From NCBI GenBank assembly GCA_964502615.1, contig CAZCXF010000001.1, positions 50,722 through 114,721 on the forward strand: DNA of 64,000 nucleotides, written 5' to 3'. The DNA is from an uncultured Candidatus Saccharibacteria bacterium (GTDB taxonomy: Bacteria; Patescibacteriota; Minisyncoccia; Phycocordibacterales; UBA9973). Shown one piece after another: positions 35,766 through 59,296 of the stretch; the first letter of the stretch is position 1, and every line of letters starts with the position of its first letter. The notes under the pieces were generated by a model. It did not search any database, was not told the origin of the DNA, and saw only the letters and a list, made by a program, of their open reading frames with translations. The position numbers and the translations under genes are program-made.

Positions 35766-36755
35766 TTATATTTTCTGAATTTTGTAATCTTCCGGTGCTT
35801 TTTGCAAATATTCTTCAATTTTTTCAGAAGTCAGTAGTCCTTTTTGTGCACCTACAAATTGAGTTACAGACATTGCATTGATCGGAGCCCAAGTCAGTGC
35901 TTCAGCTAAAGTTTTTCCCATGGCTAAACATGCAGTTATTGTAGACTCATATGCATCTCCAGCTCCAGTTCGCTCAATAGGAGTGTGGGGGTAAACTGGC
36001 ATAAACCACATATCGCCATTTTCCTCACGAGCATATGCACCCTTTATACCATCTGTCATAACTATAGTCTTTGGACCAAGTGCGTGAAGCATGTCCATTA
36101 ATTTTTTAGGATCCATTTCCGAAGAAGAAAGAATGCGTTGTGCTTCTTCTAGGTTACAATAAAATATCTCAGTTTGAGCATAAATATCTTTTAATTTTTC
36201 AGTTCCAAGTTTTATTTGAAAAGTTCCAGGTTGAAAAGCAAGCTTAGTCTCAGGGTGAGCTTTAAGCCACTCTGCTATTTCATGATGAAAATCTTCAGTA
36301 TTTTCTCCAAGAGAAGATAAGTAAATCCATTTTGGAGGTTTAATATCTTTAAAATGTCTTTCAAATGGTGCGTGATTTACTAAGATAGTTCTCTCTGGCC
36401 CATACCAAAGTACATAATGATAATTTGTAGGGAGTTTTGGATCTGTTTCAATATAATCTAGACTTACATTATTATCAGCTAGTGCTTTCATGCACTCTTT
36501 TCCATAGCTATCATTACCAACCACACCAGAAAGAGCTGAATTTAGACCTAATCTACTTGCAGAAACAGCAGCATTGGCACTATTTCCAACGGCGTAAATT
36601 ATCTCATGAAATTCATAGGGTACTTTATCTCCAAAACGAACACAGAGTTTGCAGTGCTCTTGGTCAAGATCGCAAGTTGCCTCAGCATCCTTTATTCTTA
36701 TAAAATCATCGACAACCAAGTCGCCGATAGCTAAAAAATCAATTTGTTTATCCAT
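35766..36755 (-). CDS. PfkB-family carbohydrate kinase
   Basis: Ribokinase-like fold with a C-terminal GAGDAY anion hole. Confidence 0.8.
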   Translation of the reverse strand: MDKQIDFLAIGDLVVDDFIRIKDAEATCDLDQEHCKLCVRFGDKVPYEFHEIIYAVGNSANAAVSASRLGLNSALSGVVGNDSYGKECMKALADNNVSLDYIETDPKLPTNYHYVLWYGPERTILVNHAPFERHFKDIKPPKWIYLSSLGENTEDFHHEIAEWLKAHPETKLAFQPGTFQIKLGTEKLKDIYAQTEIFYCNLEEAQRILSSSEMDPKKLMDMLHALGPKTIVMTDGIKGAYAREENGDMWFMPVYPHTPIERTGAGDAYESTITACLAMGKTLAEALTWAPINAMSVTQFVGAQKGLLTSEKIEEYLQKAPEDYKIQKI

Positions 36756-36794
36756 ACTACGTGGATTATATCACACTATGATATAATCCTAAAT

Positions 36795-37661
36795 ATGAAA
36801 ACACTGCGGGAAATCATAAAAGAGGCATCAGATAAAAGAGTTGCTGTTGGGCATTTTAATATCTCAAATTTAGAAGGCTTACATGGTATATATCAGGCGG
36901 CAAAAAAACTTGGACTTCCAGTTATTATTGGTGTATCTGAAGGAGAAGAAAAATTTGTTGGACGCGAAGAAGTGGTAGCTCTAATACGCACACTAAGAGA
37001 AAGAGATAATTATCCAATATATTTAAATGCTGATCACCATTCATCATTTGAAAGTGTAAAAGCTTGTATCGATGCCGGTTTTGATATGGCAATAATAGAT
37101 TGTGCAAAATTACCTTTTGAAGACAATGTAAAAATAACAAGAGAATGCGTAGAATATGCAAGAAAAATTACAAAAGAAACAGGGCGAGATATTTTAATAG
37201 AAGCTGAACTTGGGTTCATTGGTTCTGGTTCTGATATTAAAGATACAATACCAGAAGGCGCTGGAATATTAACTACACCAGAAGATGCAAAAAAATATGT
37301 TGAACAAACTGGTATAGATATGTTTGCGCCTTCAGTTGGATCTATACATGGGCTCATTAAAAGTGGTAAACCACATATTGATACAGACAGGGTCAGAGAA
37401 ATAAAAAATGCAGTAGGTATTCCGCTTGTGCTTCACGGTGGATCTGGTCTTCGCGATGAGGATTTTACAAATGCAATTTCTGCTGGAATTTCAGTAATTC
37501 ATATAAATTCAGAGCTTAGACTTGCATATGAGCAAGCTGTTGGAAAATTCATAAAGGAAAATCCAGAAGAGATTGTTCCTGCAAAAATTTTAGCAGGTGC
37601 GGTAGAGGCAATAGAGCAGATAGTAGAGAATAGATTAAAACTTTTTAACAACATTAAATAA
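36795..37661 (+). CDS. fba: class II fructose/tagatose-bisphosphate aldolase
   Basis: HFNISNLEG, DHH and LHGGSG motifs. Confidence 0.9.
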   Translation: MKTLREIIKEASDKRVAVGHFNISNLEGLHGIYQAAKKLGLPVIIGVSEGEEKFVGREEVVALIRTLRERDNYPIYLNADHHSSFESVKACIDAGFDMAIIDCAKLPFEDNVKITRECVEYARKITKETGRDILIEAELGFIGSGSDIKDTIPEGAGILTTPEDAKKYVEQTGIDMFAPSVGSIHGLIKSGKPHIDTDRVREIKNAVGIPLVLHGGSGLRDEDFTNAISAGISVIHINSELRLAYEQAVGKFIKENPEEIVPAKILAGAVEAIEQIVENRLKLFNNIK

Positions 37662-52429: not shown

Positions 52430-52993
52430 ATGGATCCAATAAATCAAAAAAGTGGCGGTTCAAATAAAATGCTTTACATTATTATCGGTATTCTAGTCGT
52501 TATTATCATTGCCTTCTTAATGAGAGGATCATTTGGATCACGTAGTGTGAATATAAACGGCATGAATTTAGATGTAGATAAAAAGATAGATGGTTCTACA
52601 ACTATAAAAAGTGATTATGGCACAACAACTGTAAATCAAAACAAATTACCAGATAATTGGCCAACAGACGTTCCTGCATACGCAAGTGCAACAATCACAA
52701 CAGCAGGATCTACAAACGCTCAAGCCGGGGTAGAAGGTATGGAAGTAATGTTCAATACTAAAGATAGTGCACAATCTGTTCTTAATTTTTATAAATCTGG
52801 ACTAACATCTTCAGGTTGGGCTTCTCTATATCCTGGTAAACCAATCACAGGAACTCAAGTCGGTGCAAACATAAGCCTAATGGCAAAAAAGGACAAGAGA
52901 ACATTAACAGTAAGTATAAGTGACATGGGTATTGAAGGATCAAGAGTAGTGCTAATTGTAGCCTCAATGCCAACTGTCAAAACTGGATTATAA
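52430..52993 (+). CDS. hypothetical secreted/membrane-anchored protein
   Basis: N-terminal TM followed by a Thr/Ser-rich soluble domain. Confidence 0.45.
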   Translation: MDPINQKSGGSNKMLYIIIGILVVIIIAFLMRGSFGSRSVNINGMNLDVDKKIDGSTTIKSDYGTTTVNQNKLPDNWPTDVPAYASATITTAGSTNAQAGVEGMEVMFNTKDSAQSVLNFYKSGLTSSGWASLYPGKPITGTQVGANISLMAKKDKRTLTVSISDMGIEGSRVVLIVASMPTVKTGL

Positions 52994-53000
52994 TTTTAAA

Positions 53001-53038
53001 TAAGAAGCCCCTTATATATAAGGGGCTTCTTATTTTCT
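53001..53038 (+). terminator. rho-independent terminator aagaagcccctta...taaggggcttctt
   Basis: 13-bp perfect stem followed by a T-run. Confidence 0.75.
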
Positions 53039-53058
53039 AGTTATCCACAGATTTTTTC

Positions 53059-53087
53059 TTGACTGTGAACGCTCGTTCACATATACT
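53059..53087 (+). promoter_or_regulatory. sigma70-type promoter TTGACT-N17-TATACT with LexA (Cheo-type) box GAACGCTCGTTC in the spacer
   Basis: -35 TTGACT at 53059-53064 and -10 TATACT at 53082-53087 with a 17-nt spacer. GAAC-N4-GTTC at 53067-53078 sits within the palindrome tgtgaacgctcgttcaca. Confidence 0.65.
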
Positions 53088-53126
53088 ATTTATATAAGTA
53101 ATTAGTAGTAATTTATTAGTAAATAT

Positions 53127-53333
53127 ATGAATAGAGAACAATACATAAAGATAATAGAGAGAGAGCTACAAGCTCTAAATAAGAGGATCGATATGAAGAT
53201 TCTCCAAGGTGTCGAATACAAGCGTGAGGCTCGTGACCACAAAATACTACAAAAGAAAATGATGCAACACTCACGCAAGGGTTTCTTCAATAAATTTCTA
53301 ACCGCAGTGCCTCAATTTATGATATTCTTTTAA
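53127..53333 (+). CDS. small basic protein (68 aa) between the SOS promoter and lexA
   Basis: The ORF occupies the entire gap between the LexA-box promoter and lexA. It has a helical, charged N-terminus and a hydrophobic C-terminal tail. Confidence 0.35.
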   Translation: MNREQYIKIIERELQALNKRIDMKILQGVEYKREARDHKILQKKMMQHSRKGFFNKFLTAVPQFMIFF

Positions 53334-53336
53334 TAT

Positions 53337-53903
53337 ATGCAAAACGATTACAAAGCAAAACTCCAATCTTTCTATGAGCGTGAGAAACGTATGCCTACAT
53401 ACACAGAGATGATGAAACTTTTTGGATTCAAATCCAAAAATGCTGTCGCTCGACTTGTAGATAAATTCATTGATGCTGGTATCGCAACAAAAGACCATCT
53501 TGGTAGACTTATCCCAAGTGGCTCTTTTGATAATATACCTCTCCTTGGTTCTGTTACTGCAGGTTTTCCTGTGGATGTTGAAGAAGAAATGAAAGAAGTA
53601 GTAAATCTAGATAATTACTTAGTAGGCAAGAAAGAAAATACTTTCATGCTTGAAGTGGATGGCAATTCCATGATCGATGCTCATATAGCAGATGGTGACA
53701 TGGTGCTTGTTGAAAAAACAGATAGAGCTCAAGACGGGGACATAGTTATCGCGAATGTAGATGGAGAATTCACTATGAAATATTTTAAAAAAGATGGTAA
53801 CAAAGTTTGGTTAGAACCAGCTAATAAAGACTTCAAGCCAATACATCCTAAACAATATCTACACATCAATGCAGTTGTGAAAGCTGTCATACGAAAGTAT
53901 TAA
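53337..53903 (+). CDS. lexA: LexA repressor (S24 peptidase)
   Basis: N-terminal wHTH, the cleavage-site region, Ser nucleophile GNSM and Lys in TMKYF. Confidence 0.9.
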   Translation: MQNDYKAKLQSFYEREKRMPTYTEMMKLFGFKSKNAVARLVDKFIDAGIATKDHLGRLIPSGSFDNIPLLGSVTAGFPVDVEEEMKEVVNLDNYLVGKKENTFMLEVDGNSMIDAHIADGDMVLVEKTDRAQDGDIVIANVDGEFTMKYFKKDGNKVWLEPANKDFKPIHPKQYLHINAVVKAVIRKY

Positions 53904-53915
53904 GAATTTTGAGTT

Positions 53916-54779
53916 ATGGAAGAAATCGAATATAATAAAATTATGCCAGTCTATATTAAACAACAAAAGCCAAGCAAAATTTTAGCTGATGTTGAACTTA
54001 AACCTTACTTTAAAGACAAAGAATTTGTTTTGTATAATGGGGATTCATTACTACTTTTAGAACAATTACCAGAAAATTCTGTAGATATGATATTCGCAGA
54101 TCCACCCTATAACCTTTCTAATGGTGGTTTTACTGTACATGCTGGGCGTATGGTTAGTGTAAATAAAGGTATTTGGGACATAAGTAATGGATTTGAAAAT
54201 GATTATGCTTTCCATTATAAGTGGCTTGAAGCTTGTAAAAGAGTATTAAAACCAGGAGGTACATTGTGGGTTAGTGGAACATATCATTCGATTTATCAGT
54301 GTGGACATGCGCTCCAGGCACTTAATTATCACATATTAAACGATATTTCATGGTTTAAACCTAATGCATCACCAAATTTAAGTTGCCGATTTTTTACAGC
54401 AAGTCACGAAACAATAATTTGGGCTAGAAAAGAAAAGAAAGCAAAACATACTTTTAATTACAAAGAAATGAAAGAGGGTAATTGGCCAGAGGATAAACTA
54501 AAAAAACCAGGTTTGCAAATGAGATCTGTTTGGTCAATAGGAACTCCAAAACCTAATGAAAAAAAATTTGGTAAACACCCTACACAAAAACCAATAGACC
54601 TACTTAAGAGAATTATTCTTGCAAGTACTAATAAGGGTGATGTGATTATCGATCCATTCACAGGAAGCTCAACTACAGGTATAGTAGCTGCCATGCATGG
54701 AAGGAAATTCATTGGGATAGATACTGATAAGAAATTCCTTGATCTCTCTATTAAAAGATTTAAGAACTTAAATAAATAA
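53916..54779 (+). CDS. beta-class N6-adenine/N4-cytosine DNA methyltransferase
   Basis: Motif IV DPPY (FADPPYN) lies N-terminal to motif I (IIDPFTGSSTTG), the beta-class order. ParB-like/N6_N4_Mtase family. Confidence 0.88.
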   Translation: MEEIEYNKIMPVYIKQQKPSKILADVELKPYFKDKEFVLYNGDSLLLLEQLPENSVDMIFADPPYNLSNGGFTVHAGRMVSVNKGIWDISNGFENDYAFHYKWLEACKRVLKPGGTLWVSGTYHSIYQCGHALQALNYHILNDISWFKPNASPNLSCRFFTASHETIIWARKEKKAKHTFNYKEMKEGNWPEDKLKKPGLQMRSVWSIGTPKPNEKKFGKHPTQKPIDLLKRIILASTNKGDVIIDPFTGSSTTGIVAAMHGRKFIGIDTDKKFLDLSIKRFKNLNK

Positions 54780-54780
54780 A

Positions 54781-55305
54781 ATGAAAGAAAAAGGTATAGG
54801 TGGTGCAAATACTCAAACTGGTATAAAATTTGAAAGAAAAATTAATCTTCTTAGATTTATATCGAGTTTAAAAGGGTATAAAGTTAAGAAAAATAAAATA
54901 TTTTACGAAAATAAAGAAGTTGCTAGAAGTTACGCAAAAAATAGTTTATATAATTACTTAAAAGAAAGTGGTGTAGATTACACAAAAGTACTTTCAAAAA
55001 AACTACTACCTGATGAAGCTATATATGTCATTGTTAATAACACATTGTTTGTAATTGAAATGAAATTTCAAAAAGTTGCTGGTTCTGTGGATGAAAAATT
55101 GCAAACTTGCGATTTCAAGAAAAAACAATATCAAAAACTTATGTCACAAATTAATATAGATGTGCATTATATTTACATACTAAGTGACTGGTTTAAAAAA
55201 CCTCAATATAAAGATACCTTGGACTATATTATTTCTGTTGGGTGTCAATATTACTTTGAATATCTACCATTAAAACAAATAGGTATGCCCGTACCAAAAA
55301 AATAA
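54781..55305 (+). CDS. candidate type II restriction endonuclease (PD-ExK-like)
   Basis: The start abuts the MTase stop by 1 nt. A possible PD...ExK catalytic motif occurs (LPDEAIYVI...VIEMKFQK). Confidence 0.4.
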   Translation: MKEKGIGGANTQTGIKFERKINLLRFISSLKGYKVKKNKIFYENKEVARSYAKNSLYNYLKESGVDYTKVLSKKLLPDEAIYVIVNNTLFVIEMKFQKVAGSVDEKLQTCDFKKKQYQKLMSQINIDVHYIYILSDWFKKPQYKDTLDYIISVGCQYYFEYLPLKQIGMPVPKK

Positions 55306-58741: not shown

Positions 58742-58808
58742 TGGTTTTAGTTTTAAAAGATAAAAAATTAGGAGTATGAAGAATTTTATAAATAAATAAT
58801 TTGTTTAT

Positions 58809-59027
58809 ATGAGAAATATAAAAAATTCAACTGGAGGATTTATTGGAATACTCATGATACTGATTACTGTTACTGTAATAATATTCATAATGTTTAGAAC
58901 AGATATGTTTGGCGGTAAGAAGGGAAGTAAGAGTGTAATCGAGCAGGATTTAAACGCAGTACAGCAAGCCAAAGATGTAAAAGCTTTACTCGAGAAAAAT
59001 AGTGCTCAATCAATAGACATTAACTAA
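58809..59027 (+). CDS. hypothetical small membrane protein
   Basis: 72 aa with a single TM. Confidence 0.35.
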   Translation: MRNIKNSTGGFIGILMILITVTVIIFIMFRTDMFGGKKGSKSVIEQDLNAVQQAKDVKALLEKNSAQSIDIN

Positions 59028-59195
59028 ATGTTTGACAATAGTATTGATTTGTATCATAAAATTAAACTGTGGATAACTTACTATCTTTAATCCTAAATAG
59101 GAGTACTATGTGTAATGAGTCTCGTAAGTATGACGGATGCGATCGTAAGAGAGTATCTTCAATAGCAATATTGATAGCACTTGTGAGTCTCATAA

Positions 59196-59226
59196 AGAAA
59201 ACCCCGTCAGGGGCTTTTTTTATGCC
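59196..59226 (+). terminator. plus-strand terminator aaaacccc-gtca-ggggcttttttt
   Basis: Short GC stem followed by T7. Confidence 0.5.
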
Positions 59227-59236
59227 TATTTTTAAA

Positions 59237-59275
59237 ATAAAAAACGGTCGCCTTTGAAAGACGACCTTGTAATGC
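59237..59275 (-). terminator. minus-strand terminator for 59297..59668 (ggtcgtctttcaaaggcgacc + T-run on minus strand)
   Basis: Inverted repeat ggtcgcc...gacgacc with a downstream A-run on the plus strand (a T-run on the minus strand). Confidence 0.5.
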
Positions 59276-59296
59276 GCTTGTATGGAGGATTCAATA

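Follow-up and report, generated by a model that had tools for sequence, protein, structure and literature searches.

The LexA/RecA circuit is usually viewed as a two-protein switch, and the small proteins known to be attached to LexA (division inhibitors, DdrR and gp7) are lineage-specific and come mostly from cultivated model organisms. SulA, the SOS-induced cytoplasmic effector of E. coli, which forms a lexA-sulA operon in Pseudomonas, is a protein of about 160-170 aa with an alpha/beta RecA-like fold that is encoded downstream of lexA and binds FtsZ. Sda of B. subtilis is a 46-aa helical hairpin that inhibits sporulation kinases and is not LexA-linked; its promoter has DnaA boxes, and the protein relays replication or DNA-damage status to a cell-cycle decision. 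YnzC, also of B. subtilis, has a helical-hairpin core and a flexible C-terminus and is presumably encoded in the yneA operon, next to lexA.

YnzC carries the name "SOS response protein YnzC" (PMC4143570). In Bacillus, Listeria, Staphylococcus, Mycobacterium and Corynebacterium, the SOS division inhibitor is a small protein whose gene adjoins lexA; these proteins share no homology, and one of them, SosA, is 25-60% identical within one genus (PMC6851548). For YneA, SosA, ChiZ/Rv2719c and DivS, transcription runs divergently from that of lexA. The proteins carry a transmembrane (TM) helix at the N-terminus and often LysM or another extracellular domain, as in YneA and ChiZ; they act outside the membrane, diverge rapidly and each depend on a hydrophobic element to associate with it, and overproduction of YneA/SosA/ChiZ-type inhibitors blocks septation. 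DdrR (with UmuDAb, in Acinetobacter) and GIL01 gp7 (with LexA) bind the repressor and not DNA, and they roughly double the operator binding of their repressor (PMC11332147). When three model bacteria were searched for gp7-like partners of LexA encoded on the chromosome, none turned up (PMC9700832).

Here we analyse a 68-aa ORF (the small ORF, encoding the small protein) that precedes lexA in an AT-rich stretch of 64 kb (34.7% G+C; the window hereafter). YneA, SosA, ChiZ/Rv2719c and DivS are likewise small and lineage-specific, lie under a LexA operator shared with lexA and keep their position beside it (PMC6851548). In contrast to those four, the small ORF precedes lexA within a single operon, and its product is a highly conserved protein predicted to be a cytoplasmic, basic helical hairpin. 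It is like SulA in being SOS-linked and, as in some genomes, co-transcribed with lexA, and like Sda in joining a small, here predicted, helical hairpin to a DnaA-box or DnaA-box-like promoter. With DdrR and gp7 it shares a genetic tie to an S24-family repressor and, by prediction, induction along with it, although binding of the small protein to LexA is hypothetical, and whereas ddrR is divergent from umuDAb and confined to one genus and gp7 is phage-encoded, the small ORF is neither. The nearest analogue in form is YnzC/DUF896 (PDB 2HEP/2JVD/3BHP), which is about 70-77 aa long, SOS-linked and built on a hairpin core; unlike the small protein, YnzC lacks a Phe-rich tail and is not encoded upstream of lexA. 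The small ORF differs from all of these precedents in being at once the upstream cistron of a lexA operon, paired with its neighbor class-wide, and preceded by a DnaA-box-like element in the promoter. Sequence comparison indicates that it resembles the class of LexA-controlled small genes attached to lexA and belongs to no known family of them.

The small ORF, lexA and their shared promoter

A preliminary description of this DNA had placed a 68-aa ORF between an SOS box and lexA, ending 3 nt before lexA, and both its sequence and its coordinates proved exact (Table 1). The trinucleotide TAT fills the 3-nt interval. The downstream ORF scores 140.7 bits against TIGR00498 (LexA; cutoff 110.95) and contains a Peptidase_S24 domain (Pfam, E = 9e-31), and its Ala-Gly cleavage site and Ser/Lys dyad show no variation in the alignment. 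Pfam LexA_DNA_bind matches the product only weakly (E = 0.24), and the HTH of this LexA is accordingly divergent; the winged-HTH plus S24 architecture, the cleavage site, the dyad and a score above the curated cutoff are all found in the 53337-53903 product. The two cistrons share a reading frame in the window, with TAA TAT alone between them; a read-through fusion was considered and rejected, the gaps in relatives (2-26 nt) being mostly not multiples of 3. At the 3' end of the preceding gene (52430-52993), a scan located a hairpin, CCCTTATATATAAGGGG, followed by CTTCTTATTT, and a longer stem, AAGAAGCCCC...GGGGCTTCTT, is visible in the sequence. This terminator-like hairpin is predicted to insulate the small-ORF/lexA unit from transcription of that gene. 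No known RNA families were found at the locus.

Table 1. Positions of the small ORF, lexA and the upstream elements in the window
Feature	Coordinates	Strand	Remarks
Terminator-like hairpin plus T-run	53002..53036	+	3' end of gene 52430-52993
DnaA-box-like element TTATCCACA	53041..53049	+	9 nt 5' of the -35 hexamer
Sigma-70-type promoter TTGACT-17-TATACT	53059..53087	+	10/12 consensus positions
Putative LexA operator, palindrome TGTGAACGCTCGTTCACA, core GAAC-N4-GTTC	53064..53081	.	Fills the -35/-10 spacer
Small ORF, 68 aa, ATG to TAA	53127..53333	+	First cistron, upstream of lexA
lexA, 188 aa	53337..53903	+	Second cistron; TIGR00498 above cutoff, Peptidase_S24, A75-G76/S111/K148 invariant

The sole recognisable promoter of the unit carries the LexA-type operator in its spacer (core GAACGCTCGTTC at 53067-53078), 48 nt from the ATG of the small ORF and about 260-270 nt from that of lexA, and transcription would start near 53094. 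Alignment of 88 distinct related promoters on the operator gave the consensus GTTATCCACAG-N7-8-TTGACA-GTGAACGnnCGTTCAC-n-TATACT, in which the TTGACA...TATACT region is conserved at 90% or more at most positions and GTGAACGnnCGTTCAC is likewise conserved at 90% or more. A palindrome that overlaps the core promoter of lexA's own unit is the arrangement of a LexA-autoregulated promoter, and GAAC-N4-GTTC is the Gram-positive-type LexA motif; because of this position, palindromy and motif, we infer that the operator is bound by the LexA of the window. By established SOS logic, LexA seated on GTGAACG-N2-CGTTCAC would block RNA polymerase until DNA damage led to RecA-stimulated self-cleavage of LexA and opened the promoter; the small protein and replacement LexA would then be made together, and re-accumulation of LexA would shut the promoter off again.

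The site between the promoter hexamers had also been called the only LexA box, some 270 bp upstream of lexA. The distance stands, but the claim of uniqueness does not: a second exact TGAAC-N4-GTTCA occurs at 37205-37218, within a 305-aa ORF (36744-37661), and there is no further exact operator-like site in the window. Two GAAC-N4-GTTC matches per 64 kb are within chance expectation (13/100 shuffles), and the copy at 37205-37218 is probably fortuitous.

Shine-Dalgarno motifs are nearly missing throughout the window (1/52 ORFs of at least 150 aa), so that the lack of one before the small ORF is uninformative. Many window genes have a TATAAT-like hexamer just 5-10 nt 5' of the ATG, which suggests that leaders in this genome are as a rule very short or missing.

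The preliminary description had overlooked a DnaA-box-like element that lies 5' of the -35 hexamer. TTATCCACA is exact in 80 of the 88 related promoters and present with at most one mismatch in 86, it starts 25-27 nt before GAAC in 78, and the element also occurs in the distant loci L028-L031, L114 and L115. TTATCCACA fits the DnaA box 9-mer, for which the reference consensus, TTATNCACA, is E. coli-type; DnaA may therefore bind the element, and its presence suggests that the small-ORF/lexA operon also responds to DnaA, i.e., to replication status. The window contains two exact copies of TTATCCACA. The other one (59068-59076, minus strand) has the same flanks (GTTATCCACAG) and sits in an unusually long intergenic gap (556 nt, 58742-59296) with no Rfam match.

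The element may have a bearing on what the small protein does. Instead of controlling division or modulating LexA, the protein might have some other cellular role (associated with nucleic acid, the ribosome or replication, and possibly linked to the DnaA box) and merely share the lexA promoter; the conserved TTATCCACA suggests a replication-status input besides damage, and B. subtilis YnzC offers a precedent for an SOS-regulated helical hairpin without an assigned function (PDB 2HEP; PMC4143570). Against such a role, pairing of the small ORF with an S24 gene is seen in about 100 independent loci, and with every other neighbor changing, a shared promoter would hardly account for it alone. We consider a separate role improbable.

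Coding constraint and linkage to lexA in relatives

To compare the locus among relatives, which are Paceibacteria-type genomes (Patescibacteria/CPR) and, as the closest ones known here, mark the window as part of such a genome too, we assembled 28 rows comprising 20 species-representative genomes, seven metagenome loci (some of them duplicates) whose small protein is 72-79% identical to that of the window, and the window itself. The annotated frame of the small ORF is the sole open frame in 21/21 species, and the remaining five frames contain a mean of 2-7 stops across these species-level loci; a chance ORF or an antisense gene was rejected, the other five frames being closed in relatives. Variation at codon positions 1, 2 and 3 is 0.16, 0.12 and 0.39, respectively, which makes the third position 2.5-3 times more variable than the first two. 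Across the ORF, pN is 0.21 and pS is 0.79 (synonymous sites saturated), giving a pN/pS of 0.26, and in unsaturated pairs from the same loci the median dN/dS is about 0.12 for the small ORF vs. 0.07 for lexA. Residues M1, N18, I21, D22, G28, Y31 and H38 are invariant among 50 diverse members with identities down to 28%. These measures indicate that the small ORF evolves under purifying selection.

The preliminary description had offered a translated leader as its alternative. In a uORF of this sort the act of translation alone would matter, for example by coupling to or attenuating lexA, and the peptide would be functionless. With lexA 2-26 nt downstream, translational coupling is likely anyway, and the near absence of Shine-Dalgarno motifs noted above means that re-initiation could matter for lexA. 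A leader of this kind would be expected to keep only its length and position, with a dN/dS near 1; the median found here is 0.12, with a pS of 0.79, and the peptide has seven invariant residues, belongs to a family of 237 clusters and receives a confident predicted fold. Moreover, the ORF is kept in loci with gaps of 100-215 nt, where coupling would be lost. On this constraint the leader alternative falls away almost entirely, and we give it hardly any weight.

The small ORF lies directly 5' of lexA in the 20 species genomes and in 11 of 12 metagenome look-ups, the twelfth showing the order lexA, small ORF, umuD-like gene. GAAC-N4-GTTC is found 58-77 nt before the small-ORF ATG in 28/28 rows, the distance from the small-ORF stop to lexA is 2-26 nt in all 27 evaluable rows (L027 was left out because of an N-run), and the gene that follows is 67-86% identical to the window LexA in the 27 evaluable rows. 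Among eight more divergent members (28-44% identity), seven lie directly 5' of a full-length lexA-like Peptidase_S24 gene, and the eighth (L112) lies between lexA and a umuD-like S24 gene. A LexA-centred metagenome scan with 526 hits yielded 80 loci with LexA 63-79% identical; wherever at least 260 nt of upstream sequence made a locus evaluable, a same-strand family member was present upstream of lexA (67/67, of which 66 at E<1e-20). No second operator was found in the wide gaps (100-215 nt) that separate the small ORF from lexA in some loci. The conservation check proposed in the preliminary description (dN/dS and synteny) thus came out in favor of a gene: frame, synteny and promoter spacing are kept in every relative examined, and none of those with the lexA promoter spacing has lost the frame, the outcome that had been named as grounds for dropping the proposal. 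Taken together, the small ORF is very probably a genuine gene, co-transcribed with lexA and under damage-operator control, and the comparison shows that Paceibacteria (Patescibacteria/CPR) conserve the small-ORF/lexA unit together with its operator and the TTATCCACA element.

The order in L112 (1678-3031) is a LexA box, lexA (191 aa), the small ORF (64 aa) and an HTH-less UmuD-like S24 gene (110 aa). This small ORF is of a divergent subfamily in which N replaces G28, and it lacks a separate operator or DnaA box.

Genes 3' of lexA differ among the loci and include those for a PIF1-like helicase, a Y-family polymerase, a DNA glycosylase, an MGMT-like protein or a lipase; by gene order, then, the conserved unit is taken to be the pair of small ORF and lexA. 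In L001, L002, L007, L030 and L114, a same-strand DNA-repair gene follows lexA immediately, and which one it is depends on the lineage: a PIF1-like helicase, a Y-family polymerase (IMS), or a purine DNA glycosylase plus an MGMT-like protein. The LexA-controlled operon may reach into repair functions. In the window, a type II N6/N4 DNA methyltransferase of 287 aa, matched by PADLOC MTase_II at 2e-97, and a PD-(D/E)XK-like ORF of 174 aa occupy 53916-55305 and separate lexA from an MGMT-like DNA_binding_1 gene (55334), and in the relative L005 DNA_binding_1 and the same downstream genes come directly after lexA. The 53916-55305 segment looks like a restriction-modification insertion in the tail of the lexA operon.

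This linkage raises the question of whether the small protein works on LexA itself. As an accessory factor, it would bind its cognate LexA, probably at the S24 catalytic/dimerisation domain, and tune the switch, either by strengthening its hold on the operator, as corepressors do, or by modulating RecA-dependent self-cleavage. A gene order without exception and tight spacing (2-26 nt in most loci) are consistent with such a partnership, as is the persistence of the pairing while LexA diverges to about 50% identity and the genes 3' of lexA vary freely. The constraint on the small protein is near that on LexA, and in L112 the small ORF, off its position upstream of lexA, is still immediately 5' of an S24-only UmuD-like gene. 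Corepressors of S24 regulators are known in DdrR and gp7 (PMC11332147), and the basic small protein (+8) would face a mildly acidic LexA (pI 6.1). On the other side, the small protein has no sequence similarity to gp7 or any PDB chain, its Phe-rich cationic tail behind a variable linker suggests docking to a membrane or peptide rather than membership in a DNA-bound repressor complex, and SOS effectors with no LexA binding are typically encoded beside lexA too (PMC6851548). We regard direct action on LexA as somewhat doubtful, on this genetic and sequence evidence.

The protein family and its predicted structure

A word-seeded search recovered 36 homologue clusters with 70-100% identity, all of 64-68 aa, and a profile search run exhaustively over 1.84 billion representatives extended these to 237 clusters (50% identity level, E<=1e-3), nearly all of 60-75 aa. 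Database names of the homologues are "hypothetical" or "uncharacterized" throughout. The small protein has no match in Pfam (E<=1), NCBIfam, PHROGs or PADLOC, and Pfam searches on 50 family members returned two stray single matches only. A profile search of all PDB chains (E<=10) gave one irrelevant match (E = 6.3), and fold searches with the predicted structure returned generic hairpins only. The gene is thus absent from family databases and annotation, save as "hypothetical protein", with no family model. The JGI name "glutamate mutase epsilon subunit", carried by a 68-aa homologue (P0012), was rejected as a spurious TIGR01503 match (10.9 bits, cutoff 390). By these searches, the small protein founds a large, unannotated family; a comparative study of the SOS network in Patescibacteria was reportedly made by Sanchez-Osuna et al. 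in 2017, and an earlier description in the literature may exist.

AF2, run with a 50-sequence alignment, predicts an antiparallel helical hairpin with helices at 3-27 and 32-59 (mean pLDDT 82.7) and a low-confidence C-terminal tail. In our reading of this model, the invariant residues line the a/d-like face of each helix on either side of the turn at G28. The window protein has a net charge of +8 and a pI of 10.2, and LexA is mildly acidic at pI 6.1. Across 254 members, the family has a basic core (net charge about +4.7), followed by a basic Ser/Arg-rich linker of variable length and a tail of ~14 final residues with a net positive charge, in which Phe makes up 21% and acidic residues about 1%. 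The helical hydrophobic moment of the tail is 0.37 vs. 0.27±0.13 in shuffled tails, a modest rise. We take the tail to resemble the amphipathic membrane-targeting sequences of MinD and FtsA. An uncharged stretch of at least 18 residues (TM length) occurs in 1 of 254 members, and the N-terminal 45 residues are highly charged; a transmembrane protein was rejected on the rarity of TM-length stretches.

The preliminary description had, as one possibility, likened the product to division inhibitors of the YneA/SulA type, and a family relation to either finds no support. As with YneA, SosA and ChiZ, the gene is LexA-controlled and beside lexA, although on the same strand, upstream and in one operon and not divergent; the single N-terminal TM helix of those proteins is missing. 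As for LysM or another extracellular domain, no Pfam domain was found in the window protein or, apart from the two stray matches, in 50 members. Homology to SulA (PF03846) was rejected with no Pfam match at E<=1 and no PDB sequence match at E<=10, and that to YnzC/DUF896 with a score of -0.1 bits for our family HMM against YnzC (HMMER) and PF05979 matches in 0/50 members; as a positive control, YnzC itself matches DUF896 at 6e-31. The PDB profile search showed no match to Sda and no similarity to gp7 (PDB 6N7O); DdrR is without a determined structure.

We tentatively favor, at somewhat less than even confidence, the reading that the small protein is an SOS effector, and not a structural part of the LexA switch, that possibly serves as a peripheral-membrane cell-cycle or division checkpoint protein. 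The hairpin (residues 3-59) would offer a polar/hydrophobic face formed by N18, I21, D22, I25, G28, Y31 and H38 to a conserved cytoplasmic partner, and the variable basic linker would lead to a Phe/Trp-rich, acid-free tail that holds the protein at the inner membrane face. From this position it would hold back a membrane-associated step of the cell cycle, with assembly of the divisome as the most plausible candidate, for as long as repair went on. An SOS effector or division inhibitor is plausible by position because lexA neighbors often encode division inhibitors (PMC6851548). However, the known lexA-adjacent inhibitors are bitopic, divergent from lexA and fast-evolving, and the small protein is none of these: it has no TM segment, and its constraint is almost that of LexA. 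As the first cistron of an autoregulated operon, it would have to be produced even when DNA is intact, and this sits badly with inhibition of division; furthermore, the amphipathicity of the tail is just modestly above that of shuffled controls. The strict pairing with S24 genes, L112 included, fits a physical LexA partnership at least as well. On balance, we place the checkpoint protein slightly ahead of the LexA/S24 accessory factor.

A bolder proposal would give the SOS switch of Paceibacteria a third part, obligate and encoded on the chromosome: the small protein would be the cognate partner of the S24 domain of LexA, serve as corepressor or as a gate on cleavage, and come from one operon in fixed ratio to LexA. 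Two signals would meet in this operon, damage by way of the LexA operator and replication status by way of the DnaA box. We hold this proposal to be unlikely.

Meaning for Paceibacteria and the SOS response

An uncultivated, genome-reduced class keeps a protein of 60-75 aa tied to lexA under a shared operator, and that genomes no larger than about 1 Mb retain it speaks for an important role. Once known, that role may reveal how ultra-small CPR cells couple damage to the cell cycle, or a host-encoded partner added to the LexA switch. With its fixed spacing to the operator, the DnaA-box-like element suggests a link between replication control and SOS, and a family model would let annotation pipelines call the small-protein gene. 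If the small protein does prove to be a LexA partner, it would be the first host-encoded, clade-wide one, because chromosomal gp7-like partners were not found in three model bacteria (PMC9700832).
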